From the IMG/VR virus record IMGVR_UViG_2740892211_000014: a DNA stretch of 12,554 bases. One strand, written 5' to 3'. This document shows positions 1,528 through 5,848 of the stretch, piece by piece. The position numbers and the translations under genes are program-made. Each line of letters begins with the position of its first letter. Positions within the stretch are counted from its first letter, which is position 1. The notes under the pieces were generated by a model. The model worked only from the letters and a program-made list of their open reading frames with translations. It ran no database searches and was not told the origin of the DNA. Source of the DNA: a virus (lineage: Duplodnaviria; Heunggongvirae; Uroviricota; Caudoviricetes).

Positions 1528-2202
1528 ATGAAAACAATCCATGACATCCGGCGGTCTAACGCCAGAAAACTGAGAGATGGTGTTGGCGGGAATTCTTCCT
1601 TTGCCACTATGATTGATCGCGAGCCAACCCAGACCAGCAGGTTTATGGGAGATGGTGCTACTAAAAATATCGGTGACAGCATGGCACGACACATCGAAAA
1701 ATGTTTCGACCTGCCTGTCGGATGGCTCGATCAAGAACACCAGACAACGAACATCACAAAAAAACCTGATGTTTCAATCACTAATAAACAAATCACATTA
1801 GTCCCTGTCATATCATGGGTACAGGCCGGAGCATGGAAAGAAGTTGGATATTCTGAGGTTGATTTGAGCACAGCAGAAACGTATCCCTGCCCTGTACCCT
1901 GTGGGGAAATGACTTATATCTTGCGGGTGATAGGTGATTCAATGATTGATGAGTACCGCCCGGGAGACATGATTTTTGTCGATCCTGAAGTACCTGCCTG
2001 CCACGGTGACGACGTTATTGCATTGATGCACGATACAGGTGAAACCACCTTCAAAAGGTTGATAGAAGATGGGACACAGCGTTATCTCAAAGCGTTAAAC
2101 CCAAACTGGCCTGAGCCTTACATTAAGATCAACGGTAATTGCTCTATAATTGGTACAGTGATTTTCTCAGGAAAACCAAGAAGATACAAAATCAAAGCCT
2201 AA
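1528..2202 (+). CDS. CI-type phage repressor with C-terminal S24 (LexA-like) autopeptidase domain
   Basis: 224 aa. C-terminal region contains VISWVQAGAW and RVIGDSM ... TFKRL, the Ser/Lys dyad context typical of S24 repressors. N-terminal region resembles the phage CI-repressor HTH domain. Divergent from the cro-like gene across the operator region. Confidence 0.8.
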   Translation: MKTIHDIRRSNARKLRDGVGGNSSFATMIDREPTQTSRFMGDGATKNIGDSMARHIEKCFDLPVGWLDQEHQTTNITKKPDVSITNKQITLVPVISWVQAGAWKEVGYSEVDLSTAETYPCPVPCGEMTYILRVIGDSMIDEYRPGDMIFVDPEVPACHGDDVIALMHDTGETTFKRLIEDGTQRYLKALNPNWPEPYIKINGNCSIIGTVIFSGKPRRYKIKA

Positions 2203-2214
2203 TCAATGTTTATG

Positions 2215-2237
2215 AACCTGCTTCGGCAGGTTTTTTT
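2215..2237 (+). terminator. Rho-independent terminator after the cI-like gene
   Basis: AACCTGC-TTCG-GCAGGTT stem-loop followed by T7 (2231-2237), 13 nt after the cI stop codon. Confidence 0.7.
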
Positions 2238-2241
2238 ATAC

Positions 2242-2269
2242 TTGACAATGTACCTTTGAGATACATAAT
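2242..2269 (+). promoter_or_regulatory. pL-like sigma70 promoter with embedded operator
   Basis: TTGACA (2242-2247), 16-nt spacer, CATAAT (2264-2269). The spacer and -10 overlap TGTACC-TTTGA-GATACA (2249-2265), matching the OR half-site consensus. Points toward the + strand early-left genes. Confidence 0.55.
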
Positions 2270-2395
2270 GAACCCAAGCGAAACAACGAACAGGCAGGAC
2301 GCCCACGAAGTAGCCGCCTGGGGCATATGAAGTCCAGGATGATTCGTTGAGTCATGTTGTGCCACTAGGCACTCATGTTAAAGCAGGTGTATGAA

Positions 2396-2671
2396 ATGAA
2401 AGTCCAGATTTTAAACAATAACTGTGAAGTCGTTTGGTCATACGACATAGCCGCCCCTGTAGATCAGAGCGGCGATAGCTGGACCAATGAGAAACATCAG
2501 ATTATGGCTGGAGTTGTGTTCTCTTTACGCCGTGCTTTGGAACAGGCTGAAGTATTTCCATCAGACCCTGAATGGAAATGGCCTTTTTCTATTTGCCCAA
2601 ATTCGGAGAACACATTTCAGAAAATTGGTCAGAAAGTCGCACTCGAAGAGCATCAGCCAACTGTTTCCTGA
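2396..2671 (+). CDS. Hypothetical small protein, first ORF downstream of the pL-like promoter
   Basis: ATG at 2396 preceded by AGGTG (2385-2389) at 6-nt spacing; an in-frame ATG at 2375 lacks a Shine-Dalgarno. 91 aa, no recognisable family. Its 3' end overlaps the convergent ORF 2589-2834 by 83 nt, so the true stop or the reality of one partner is uncertain. Confidence 0.4.
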   Translation: MKVQILNNNCEVVWSYDIAAPVDQSGDSWTNEKHQIMAGVVFSLRRALEQAEVFPSDPEWKWPFSICPNSENTFQKIGQKVALEEHQPTVS

Positions 2672-2834
2672 TTTTTTCAGGTAACTCGTCGGCATCGCAG
2701 AAACAACAACGCTCGATCATGTTGAAAGCCGATTCGTAGAACTGTTTCTGCTGAGTGTCGCTGAGACAGGAAAAGAGCGACGTTACGATGATTTTATTAA
2801 TTGCATTATCAAGTTCTTTTTCATCAAAAGTCAT
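2589..2834 (-). CDS. Hypothetical 81-aa protein, antisense to the early-left operon
   Basis: ATG (2834-2832) preceded by AAGGAA (2846-2841) at 6-nt spacing. Translation MTFDEKELDNAINKIIVTSLFSCLSDTQQKQFYESAFNMIERCCFCDADELPEKIRKQLADALRVRLSDQFSEMCSPNLGK is protein-like; no family recognised. Confidence 0.45.
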   Translation of the reverse strand: MTFDEKELDNAINKIIVTSLFSCLSDTQQKQFYESAFNMIERCCFCDADELPEKIRKQLADALRVRLSDQFSEMCSPNLGK

Positions 2835-3074
2835 TTGATTTTCCTTTTATGTATACGGGCTTAAAAGGATACCACCGAGCCTGAAGTGGTGAAAAGACAG
2901 GCACATAACAGCTAAGTATTTTCAACCAAAGAGAATCCTTAGCGTTGTGGTGAATGCGGCTCAGCGCACGCGGGTTAAGGTTGAGGCTGACAGTCGACCT
3001 TCTGTGGATACCCACCCGTCTGGTGTGCAACCTTCGCCAGGCACCGGGAGGCACCCGGCACCACAACTTTATGC

Positions 3075-3134
3075 TGTGTGTAGTCCTGGCGGTACCAGTT
3101 TGTACCCTTGCTTCCGGCTGGTACCGCTCTTTTT
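3075..3134 (+). ncRNA. Candidate DicF-like prophage sRNA ending in an intrinsic terminator
   Basis: Perfect 10-bp stem GCGGTACCAG (3089-3098) / CTGGTACCGC (3118-3127) followed by TCTTTTT. TGGCGGTACCAGTTTGTACCC resembles the 3' half of E. coli DicF (recalled as TGGCGGTATCAGTTTTACTCC ... CCGCC-TTTTT). Lies in an ORF-free stretch downstream of the immunity region, as dicF does in Qin. 5' end undefined. Confidence 0.3.
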
Positions 3135-3135
3135 A

Positions 3136-3222
3136 CAAAACAGAGAAGAGCATCACCGGACGACGGGCTCATAACCCAATCCATCCGGGCGGCGGTCACC
3201 GCAGGTGTTCTTCTCTGTTTTG
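3136..3222. repeat. 14-bp perfect inverted repeat flanking a 59-bp GC-rich spacer
   Basis: CAAAACAGAGAAGA (3136-3149) and TCTTCTCTGTTTTG (3209-3222) are exact reverse complements. Starts immediately after the terminator T-run. Spacer contains further short GC stems (CCGGA...CCGGG, CACCGC). Confidence 0.6.
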
Positions 3223-3347
3223 TGGAGAAACTAACCGCCCCTGCGGGGGCATCTATTGAAACGTAATTGCTTAATAATCGCCGGATGGCGAGGGCTTCCT
3301 TTTCCCAAAATTCAGCGCAGTGCAGCGCATATAAAGTGGAGAACGAA

Positions 3348-3884
3348 ATGTCATTTATTAAAACTTTTTCCGGGAAGCATTTTTATTATGACAAGATAAA
3401 TAAAGACGACATCGTTATTAACGATATCGCGGTTTCCCTTTCAAATATCTGTCGCTTTGCTGGTCATCTTTCACACTTCTACAGCGTCGCCCAACATGCG
3501 GTGCTTTGCAGCCAGCTGGTACCGCAGGAGTTTGCTTTTGAAGCGTTAATGCATGATGCAACAGAAGCGTATTGCCAGGACATCCCCGCACCACTGAAAC
3601 GCCTTCTTCCTGACTATAAACGGATGGAAGAAAAAATAGACGCCGTAATCCGTGAGAAATACGGGTTACCCCCGGTTATGAGTACACCCGTGAAATATGC
3701 CGATCTCATCATGCTGGCAACCGAACGCCGCGATCTCGGGCTTGATGATGGCTCTTTCTGGCCTGTGCTGGAAGGTATCCCGGCAACAGAGATATTCAAC
3801 GTGATTCCACTGGCTCCAGGCCATGCCTACGGGATGTTTATGGAACGCTTTAACGAATTATCGGAGTTACACAAATGCGCATGA
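3348..3884 (+). CDS. HD-domain phosphohydrolase (YfbR-like 5'-deoxynucleotidase family)
   Basis: ATG 3348 with GGAGA ~9 nt upstream. 178 aa with the HD signature (H in VAQHAVL, HD in ALMHDATEAY, followed by D in CQDIPAPLK), similar to small prophage HD hydrolases. The upstream 27 codons of the longer ORF are taken as non-coding. Confidence 0.65.
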   Translation: MSFIKTFSGKHFYYDKINKDDIVINDIAVSLSNICRFAGHLSHFYSVAQHAVLCSQLVPQEFAFEALMHDATEAYCQDIPAPLKRLLPDYKRMEEKIDAVIREKYGLPPVMSTPVKYADLIMLATERRDLGLDDGSFWPVLEGIPATEIFNVIPLAPGHAYGMFMERFNELSELHKCA

Positions 3885-4508: not shown

Positions 4509-4715
4509 ATGCTGAACCTCGATTGTGTTCCAATCTCAACTTATTGCAAAGAAACTGGCGAAACTCCTGAAGCAATAAACAAACGTGTACAGCGCGGTGT
4601 TTGGCGTGAAGGTGTTCAGGTTTTAAAGGTTGAAGGCGTTAAGGAGAGGTGGATTGATCTTAGTGAGGTTGCAAAATGGGCCAGACAAAACTGCTCAAAC
4701 TACCGCGCGGCGTAA
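4509..4715 (+). CDS. xis: Excisionase-like DNA-binding protein
   Basis: ATG 4509 with GTGGAG upstream at 6-nt spacing. 68 aa, MLNLDCVPISTYCKETGETPEAINKRVQRGVWREGVQVLKVEGVKERWIDLSEVAKWA has excisionase-like winged-helix features. 3' end overlaps the int start by 40 nt, as in lambda xis-int. Confidence 0.6.
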   Translation: MLNLDCVPISTYCKETGETPEAINKRVQRGVWREGVQVLKVEGVKERWIDLSEVAKWARQNCSNYRAA

Positions 4716-5848
4716 CAATCAGGAAACACCGCCAGGGCGAAACGATCAATATAACTTTCACCTACAAAGGAGTTAAATGTCGTGAGCCTCTTTCCAATCT
4801 GGAAGTAACACCAAAGAACATTAAATACGCTGAGCGCACACTCGGCGAAATTCATAATAAGATCGAAAGGGGAACATTCATTTATGCGGAATATTTTCCC
4901 CGTTCTGCTCGTTTGAAAATTTTTGGTAATGCTGCTGCAGGCAAAACGGTAAAAATGTACCTGGACGAATACCTTGAAATCTGCGAAACGAGGAAACTTT
5001 CACCATCCACGATCGGTGGTTATAAAAAATGCCGTAGTGCGTTAGCCTCACTTCACATTTGCCCTGCAAGTGAATTAACACCAGCAACCCTGAAAGCGTG
5101 GATTCAAAGCCAGAAAACGACCTTAAAAACCATTCGCAACCAGTTATCTTTCCTGCGGTCAGCACTTGATGAAGCCGTGACCGATGGGGTACTTCAAATT
5201 AACCCCGTATCGTTAGTAACAGCTTCGCGCTACCAAAGTGATAAGTCAGAAGCAGAAAGCAGCTACGTAGTTGATCCGCTATCACCAGCAGAAGTTGATG
5301 CATTACTAGCAGCAGCCGGAAACAAACAATGGGAAAATCTGTTCCGGTTCGCTATACATACAGGCCTGCGTAGTTCTGAATTATGTGCCCTTCGATGGCG
5401 TGATATCGACTTTGTTGGAAAAACTGCCCATGTCCAGAGCGCAAGTGTTGTCGGTGTTATCAAAGGGACAAAGACAAAAGCAGGTACTCGGAAAGTTGAA
5501 CTGACAGAAGAGGCAATGTTGGCGCTGATAAATCAGAAGCCATTTACATTCATGAAGGATGCTACTGTCTTTGAAGATCCAAAGACCAATAAGCCTTGGG
5601 CAAGTGCTGATGCAATTAGGAAAAAAGCATGGGTGCCAACATTGCGAAAAGCAGGTATTCGTTACAGAAACCCATATCAAACCAGGCATACATTCGCCAC
5701 CAGCCATATCAGCCGAGGAGCAAACCTGTTTTGGCTTGCAGCTCAAATGGGGCATAAAGGGCCGGAGATGCTTTTCAGGCACTATGGTTCGTATCTTAAA
5801 GAGTATGATAACTTTACATCGATAAATCATTTGCATAATCATAATTAA
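4676..5848 (+). CDS. int: Phage tyrosine integrase (lambda-Int type with arm-binding N-domain)
   Basis: 390 aa. N-terminal KLPRGVTIRKHRQGETINITFTYKGVKCRE is arm-binding-like. C-terminal domain has the conserved R (FAIHTGLRSSE), the H-x-x-R context (RHTFATSH) and tyrosine in LFRHYGSY. Adjacent to the att repeat. Confidence 0.9.
   Translation: MGQTKLLKLPRGVTIRKHRQGETINITFTYKGVKCREPLSNLEVTPKNIKYAERTLGEIHNKIERGTFIYAEYFPRSARLKIFGNAAAGKTVKMYLDEYLEICETRKLSPSTIGGYKKCRSALASLHICPASELTPATLKAWIQSQKTTLKTIRNQLSFLRSALDEAVTDGVLQINPVSLVTASRYQSDKSEAESSYVVDPLSPAEVDALLAAAGNKQWENLFRFAIHTGLRSSELCALRWRDIDFVGKTAHVQSASVVGVIKGTKTKAGTRKVELTEEAMLALINQKPFTFMKDATVFEDPKTNKPWASADAIRKKAWVPTLRKAGIRYRNPYQTRHTFATSHISRGANLFWLAAQMGHKGPEMLFRHYGSYLKEYDNFTSINHLHNHN

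Follow-up and report, generated by a model that had tools for sequence, protein, structure and literature searches.

A candidate KilS-type small RNA module, joined to an STnc100-related core, in the early-left operon of an e14/SfV/ST64B-like prophage

DicF of the Qin prophage is processed from the dicB operon transcript, and its 5' single-stranded region, UUUCUGGUGACGUU, serves DicF targets other than ftsZ. In Rac-type phages the DicF position is held by an element that reads ...ATTGCTGTGTGTAGTCTTGGCGGCATCAGTTTTTT...GCTGATGTCCGCCCCTTTTT... and that in Escherichia coli K-12 is the annotated sRNA KilS (b4833), located just upstream of kilR. KilS is an Hfq-dependent sRNA verified by northern blotting, detected in the wild type and gone in an hfq deletion, which accumulates in stationary phase and is transcribed from a start site of its own (Bar et al. 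2021, PMC8175672). RIL-seq gave yncL as its single consistent partner, an RNase E site at position 1418471 is reported in the supplement, and the 'ymfH' region of the e14 prophage was sRNA-like in Hfq RIL-seq (0.113 and 0.094, with 0.103 and 0.119 for dicF) (PMC8175672). A third group consists of STnc100 (RF02076) and the PasD prophage sRNAs (bioRxiv 10.64898/2026.05.13.724894), built of a multi-hairpin core (GGUGAAU...CACCGGGAGGCACCCGGCACCA), a single-stranded stretch and a terminator, an architecture also found in the DNA analysed here. DicF, KilS and STnc100/PasD have so far been treated separately, and no paper naming both KilS and DicF was found in the literature library searched.

The window, i.e. 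the whole 12,554-nt stretch of viral DNA that was analysed (IMG/VR record IMGVR_UViG_2740892211_000014), carries an immunity region of the e14 / SfV / ST64B type. Over the 1 kb compared (2600-3600) it is 100 % identical to a prophage of E. coli KSC1031. Downstream of ymfK lie small ORFs, the RNA region and, from 3348, the yfdR-like genes. The original prediction had placed a DicF-like sRNA at 3060-3134; this extent was too short, as the element runs on upstream into a 130-nt core (2940-3071) that had been missed. The features referred to below are the following:

Minus strand: ymfL and the cro-like gene ymfT
1528-2202, plus strand: LexA/cI-like repressor gene ymfK
2214-2237, plus strand: intrinsic terminator after ymfK, GAACCTGCTTCGGCAGGTTTTTTT; the equivalent SfV site is annotated as a rho-independent terminator
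2242-2269, plus strand: probable early-left promoter (TTGACA, 16 nt, CATAAT), read from the sequence
2249-2265: operator-like site TGTACCTTTGAGATACA between the promoter hexamers, of presumed regulatory role
2871-2890, plus strand: short stem-loop CCACCGAGCCUGAAGUGGUG, which a terminator scan picks up as a minus-strand hairpin
2940-3071, plus strand: structured core related to STnc100, with a closing stem GUUGUGGUG / CACCACAAC and a multi-hairpin junction
3063-3071, plus strand: AU-rich linker ACAACUUUA directly 5' of the seed
3072-3085, plus strand: conserved single-stranded seed UGCUGUGUGUAGUC
3088-3134, plus strand: DicF/KilS-type long-loop hairpin with UCUUUUU, alignable with the terminator hairpins of both KilS and DicF
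3130-3228, plus strand: element B, an inverted repeat whose arms (3130-3154 with 3204-3228) pair into a helix some 25 bp long
3348-3884, plus strand: gene for a yfdR-like 5'-deoxynucleotidase (KSC1031 annotation; PHROG 318, E 4e-109), the first clear gene downstream of the RNA region
4676-5848: integrase gene

The placement of the element within the early-left operon was right, because a strong promoter-like sequence with an operator-like site follows the ymfK terminator; this operator-like site resembles two palindromes in the ymfT-ymfK intergenic region (1443-1461 and 1494-1510). The proposed equivalence with the dicF locus is thus upheld: the element lies downstream of a cI-like repressor gene, as dicF does in Qin, where the corresponding layout is dicA, ydfABC, dicF, dicB. 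An RNA made from the early-left promoter only would be repressed in the lysogen, which weighs against an sRNA reading. A separate transcript is putative, because a consensus scan gave no sigma-70 promoter on the plus strand between 2400 and 3700. An internal candidate picked by eye (AAGACA, 17 nt, TATTTT at 2894-2922) agreed at 8 of 12 positions and was rejected, not being conserved in homologues. Between the promoter and the RNA region two convergent ORFs overlap, 2375-2671 (plus strand) and 2589-2834 (minus strand), belonging to families of unknown function (PHROG 3195 and 3311). Should the ORF on the minus strand be genuine, transcription of the early-left operon is antisense to it and the hairpin at 2871-2890 would read as a terminator-like structure on the minus strand, just upstream of that ORF.

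The perfect 10-bp stem and U-tract described earlier at 3089-3134 were borne out by pairing and folding. Ten Watson-Crick pairs join G3089-G3098 with C3118-C3127, and the stem reaches 13 bp when G-U pairs are counted (3088-3100 against 3116-3128); the loop has 15 nt and the tail UCUUUUU occupies 3128-3134. The segment 3060-3140 folds with -27.2 kcal/mol (z = -3.6 against 200 dinucleotide shuffles). A simple terminator scan made no call here because the loop is longer than 8 nt, and a loop of 15 nt, unusual for an intrinsic terminator, counts against an sRNA module. The structure is probably an intrinsic terminator that doubles as an Hfq-binding module. A riboswitch-like antiterminator pairing between CCUGGCG (3085-3091) and CGCCAGG (3034-3040) is present in the window and was discarded, as it is not kept in phiES15.

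The likeness to DicF, given in the original prediction as 13 of the first 14 nt, proved genuine on alignment with the fetched K-12 dicF (Qin, L006 2383-2435). TGGCGGTACCAGTT is identical to dicF at 13 of 14 positions, the common segment being TGGCGGTA(T/C)CAGTTT. One shuffle in 3000 reached the local alignment score of 26, which ranked first when 500 segments of this sequence were compared; a slightly longer segment gave z = 6.9. The window contains the DicF-type hairpin, namely GGCGGUAYCAG, a long loop, CCGCC and a U-run, in an early-left operon beside immunity genes. The Rfam covariance model that had been proposed as a check did not give a significant match: no family was found in the window at the gathering threshold, and with permissive settings DicF (RF00039) scored 15.7 bits (E = 1.1 over 600 bases, at 3075-3129) against a gathering cut-off of 48 bits. 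The same model gave 76.7 bits for DicF itself, 41.1 for the KilS copy of Rac-SA53 and 39.1 for K-12 KilS. The window element is tied to DicF because significant alignments form a chain through KilS, from the window to the Rac-SA53 copy (z = 16) and from that copy to DicF (z = 14.7). Of the claim that the element is a diverged DicF family member, what stands is a distant superfamily homology through KilS; the score lies below the Rfam cut-off and the type is that of KilS.

It was further claimed that the RNA would block ftsZ translation. A true DicF orthologue of this kind, inhibiting host cell division, is very improbable, even though TGGCGGTAYCAGTTT and the hairpin architecture are common to the two elements, the operon position is identical and an STnc100-like core adjoins the module in Qin as in the window. 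The sub-threshold Rfam score speaks against it, and so do the parts of DicF that the window lacks: the loop is without the CUCCG anti-Shine-Dalgarno motif, and UUUCUGGUGACGUU is replaced by UGCUGUGUGUAGUCC, the 5' single-stranded region being of the KilS type. Binding to the ftsZ start region, calculated as the cofold energy minus the two self-folds, was -4.3 kcal/mol for the window and -11.1 kcal/mol for DicF, and 66 % of 626 random segments of the window did as well, so that the ftsZ claim proved unfounded. RNAduplex, which allows long loops, did not discriminate and was set aside in favour of the cofold energies. The orthologue reading is already largely refuted: the element is not a DicF orthologue, and ftsZ is not its target by the DicF mode.

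The closest relative is KilS, to the 3' two-thirds of which 3068-3134 is homologous. The two agree at 54 of 71 aligned columns and are identical over the 21 nt of TGCTGTGTGTAGTCCTGGCGG, which spans the seed and the start of the stem; the long-loop hairpin and the U5 tail are homologous, the annotated 3' end of KilS being the U-run that corresponds to the one in the window. The two elements have different loop sequences, and at two stem pairs both partners have changed together (C-G to U-A and U-A to C-G). The Rac-type element aligns over its full length with the window module and with DicF alike. Both KilS and the window module belong to an early-left operon downstream of the repressor and lie beside an STnc100-like core. 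They differ at the 5' side: KilS has its own stem-loop (GUGGGAGUGCGCCUCC...), a mapped promoter and a 98-nt primary transcript, whereas in the window the stem-loop sequence is absent and the 130-nt core takes its place. The order differs as well: KilS precedes the core and kilR, while the window module comes after the core and before element B and the yfdR-type genes. As judged from these alignments, DicF, KilS and the window element form one superfamily in which the window element is of the KilS type and KilS is a sub-threshold DicF relative occupying the DicF position. Rfam appears to hold no KilS family, because the K-12 KilS locus, when searched against Rfam 15 with permissive settings, gave only sub-threshold DicF and STnc100 matches.

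On this basis we consider it likely that 3068-3134 is the 3' module of a prophage-encoded base-pairing sRNA of the KilS type, probably dependent on Hfq. By analogy with KilS, the window copy would be processed, bind Hfq and regulate in trans. The reading draws support from the KilS homology with its compensatory stem changes and z = 16 against the Rac-SA53 copy, from the Hfq dependence of K-12 KilS and from the sRNA-like behaviour in RIL-seq of the e14 'ymfH' region, which is the K-12 homologue of the RNA region of the window. The RNase E site 1418471 falls immediately 5' of the KilS seed. The reading is weakened because complementarity of the seed to yncL was not significant and because both Rfam matches (42.1 bits for STnc100, described below, and 15.7 bits for DicF) are below their cut-offs. 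For yncL the duplex energy gave p ~0.14, the longest run of 12 bp in the 3' UTR p ~0.06 and a run in the 5' UTR p ~0.2.

The seed is identical in K-12 Rac KilS, SfV, e14, phiES15 and LLS, and one base off in ST64B (UGCUGUGUGAAGUC). In IMG/VR viral contigs TGCTGTGTGTAGTC had at least 119 exact matches, a breadth obtained by an exact-match search, so that the invariance of the seed is partly by construction. Among the matches listed, 106 of 119 were followed by a hairpin and a T-run, these hairpins having at least 57 different sequences, and the remaining 13 matches have the look of chance. When 100 viral loci were inspected, the upstream partner of the seed was in 25 loci an STnc100-like core ending exactly at it, as in the window. 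In about 19 it was a 5' stem-loop of the KilS type, and the core came directly after the module. About 10 had a weaker upstream core match and the rest other sequence; in more than half, the core directly adjoins the seed module. No cis target for the seed was found within the 12.5-kb window. An invariant single-stranded 14-mer combined with freely exchanged terminators looks like a trans-acting seed.

These data bear on the main rival explanation, according to which the element is a tL-like terminator or attenuator of the early-left operon that acts in cis only, its conserved flanks serving termination control or processing and no RNA functioning in trans. The hairpin and U-run do sit between the early-left promoter and the yfdR-type genes, the conserved long helix that comes next takes in the U-run and could modulate termination or RNase III processing, and the scan found no independent promoter. 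Exact retention of a 14-nt single-stranded segment while the hairpin is swapped is nevertheless unexpected for a plain terminator, and in K-12 the homologues, KilS and 'ymfH', both behave like sRNAs bound to Hfq. We therefore regard the cis-only explanation as unlikely.

Upstream of the seed, the best Rfam match in the window was STnc100, full-length at 2922-3136, with 42.1 bits (E 8.8e-8) against a cut-off of 47 bits, and the hairpin at 3088-3134 is the terminator of this match. The same sub-threshold match, at 35-41 bits, was found in the same place in SfV, ST64B, Salmonella phage 118970_sal3 and Cronobacter phiES15. The homologous loci were aligned with canonical STnc100 copies that Stx phages and a Klebsiella phage carry in the late operon; in this alignment the closing stem and three hairpins co-vary. 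The core contains the invariant hairpin CCGGG-AGGCA-CCCGG. R1, a covariance model built from this core, scored 126.5 bits at the window and gave more than 80 full-length matches across Enterobacteriaceae. Over 87 distinct sequences 94.6 % of the cells were paired, in comparison to about 48 % in slid controls, and compensatory changes occurred in 19 of 26 pairs. The upstream core is a real structured RNA. The canonical STnc100 copies examined lie in the late operon, with Q or stx on one side and the lysis genes on the other, and have a different 3' single-stranded region and hairpin; the core of the window lies in the early-left operon.

R1 also matched K-12 Qin, with 66.4 bits, in the gap between dicF and dicB (L006 2451-2586). 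DicF has in common with the window the same kind of terminator hairpin, the operon niche and an adjacent core, with homology detectable through KilS; it differs in its 5' single-stranded region, its loop and its complementarity to ftsZ, and in the order, which is dicF, core, dicB in Qin and core followed by module in the window. In K-12 Rac a core separates KilS from kilR (minus strand of L139, about 1395-1260), and in phage P7 one precedes terB in the C1-controlled operon (L136 2501-2616). The Qin, Rac and P7 cores are not annotated as RNA and all score below the Rfam STnc100 cut-off (28-43 bits). In three IMG/VR contigs (L209, L213 and L235) the seed comes about 25 nt after a ...ATACCACCGAGCCTGAAGTGGTGAAAAGACAGGCAA...CAT stem-loop, the counterpart of 2871-2890 in the window, and there is no core between them; this suggests that the 130-nt core is an insertable module.

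The element had been described as lying in an ORF-free stretch, which is not strictly so: three mechanical ORFs (2954-3259, 2947-3174 and 3108-3266) overlap the hairpin region, and public annotation has a 'frameshifted hypothetical protein' or 'ymfH' there. An explanation by coding, in which the stretch is part of a ymfH-like gene of 101 aa (2954-3259) and the hairpin is incidental, can point to the ATG ORF at this place and to the homologous annotations, ymfH in K-12 and 'hypothetical protein' by PGAP. We find it extremely improbable. The open frame differs among window/SfV, e14, ST64B/sal3 and phiES15, PGAP marks the ORF as frameshifted in the identical KSC1031 locus, no PHROG family was found for the 101-aa ORF, and covariation across the region is of the RNA type. 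Because the frame is not conserved and the ORF has no PHROG family, the region is taken as non-coding RNA. The ymfH CDS annotated in K-12 e14 (L002 3048-3359) takes in all three parts, namely core, KilS-like module and element B; the e14 core looks decayed, the invariant CCGGGAGGCACCCGG reading CCGGG-GGCACCCGA. K-12 ymfH is probably a composite non-coding RNA locus and not a protein-coding gene. A literature search on ymfH returned nothing on an RNA.

For the KilS-type sRNA preferred here, the absence of a conserved reading frame and of a PHROG family adds support, as do the exactness of the seed while its flanks vary, the stability of the hairpin and the reality of the core as a structured RNA. 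The module consists of the AU-rich linker, the 14-nt single-stranded seed and the long-loop hairpin with its U-run, the hairpin terminating transcription and being expected to bind Hfq; in the e14 / SfV / ST64B-like lineage it is fused to the 3' side of the 130-nt STnc100-related core. Four steps are proposed. Transcription would start most likely at the repressor-controlled early-left promoter (2242-2269) and possibly also at an internal one, and would end at 3134, giving a primary product built like STnc100, with a length of some 200 nt or more. RNase E would then probably cut in ACAACUUUA|UGCUG to release an RNA of about 65 nt made of seed, hairpin and U-tail. Such a species is held probable by analogy, because KilS is cut by RNase E just 5' of its seed and DicF is processed. 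Finally, this short RNA would bind Hfq and pair with its target. Polymerases reading through the hairpin would continue into element B and the yfdR-type genes.

Element B is thus part of the read-through leader before the first early-left gene. The 5' strand of its helix starts in the U-run of the terminator, the 3' strand ends in GUGGAGAAA, and a small hairpin (3236-3251) follows. The element is kept in SfV, e14, mEp460, ST64B, F1055, LLS and sal3, with four compensatory pairs, and it comes after several different terminator types. An RNase III site is present in the lambda N leader and RNase III takes part in the processing of DicF precursors; by analogy, read-through transcripts may have an RNase III site in element B.

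A further explanation treats the whole leader (2870-3250), with its 5' stem-loop, STnc100-like core, 14-nt segment, terminator and helix swallowing the U-run, as a protein-independent RNA switch, either put-like or a new antitermination/processing device, which also yields a trans-acting sRNA. The core or the segment would modify RNA polymerase or recruit a host factor and so allow read-through on induction, and RNase III cleavage of element B would release both sRNA and mRNA. The put sequences of HK022 are cis-acting antiterminator RNAs located just downstream of the early promoters. They resemble the window in that a structured RNA in the leader of an early operon precedes a terminator, and differ in having two stems and about 70 nt, in comparison to a core of about 130 nt placed some 650 nt from the promoter. 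No N-like antiterminator was identified in the phages concerned. R1 found no significant match over the HK022 genome (the highest score, 13.9 bits with E 0.08, fell outside the immunity region), a search that asks whether HK022 holds a core-like RNA and has antiterminator action outside its scope; a put-like identity was dropped, the similarity not being found in HK022 with R1. The switch is considered decidedly improbable.

With the KilS-type sRNA as the preferred reading, a previously unannotated element would be placed in a defined sRNA family. It is present in 2816 of 5426 complete E. coli genomes, i.e. about half, and also in SfV, SfII and ST64B. DicF, KilS and STnc100/PasD would then become parts of one modular system of lambdoid early operons, and the value of the result comes mainly from this unifying picture, which takes in DicF, KilS, the STnc100-like core and the 'ymfH' misannotation, together with the hyper-conserved seed. 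Retention of 14 nt across dozens of terminators suggests one conserved target, in the host or in the phage, and this question is directly testable in K-12, which carries both KilS and the e14 copy.

Several observations were made on related loci. The core also forms tandem arrays of two to six copies spaced by about 120-260 nt, several of the copies having their own terminator. Such arrays were seen on a plasmid of Pantoea sp. App145 (L069 945-1993) and in loci L055 (3111-4490), L068 (6365-7006), L066 (6388-6732), L095 (2829-3213) and L062 (3440-3788). C4, IsrK and P4-CI were considered as identities for the core and rejected, since these families match elsewhere in SfV, ST64B and mEp460 and not at this element. 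In the right-hand operon of mEp460, SfV and ST64B, close to a gene of the antirepressor type, C4 antisense RNA and IsrK match side by side with scores well above the Rfam cut-offs (L004 323-511, L005 198-386 and L003 407-595, minus strand); no such match occurs in the window. In phage P7 a tRNA-Sec-like match of 46.6 bits, against a cut-off of 47 bits, lies between the tRNA genes and the core (L136 2304-2388).
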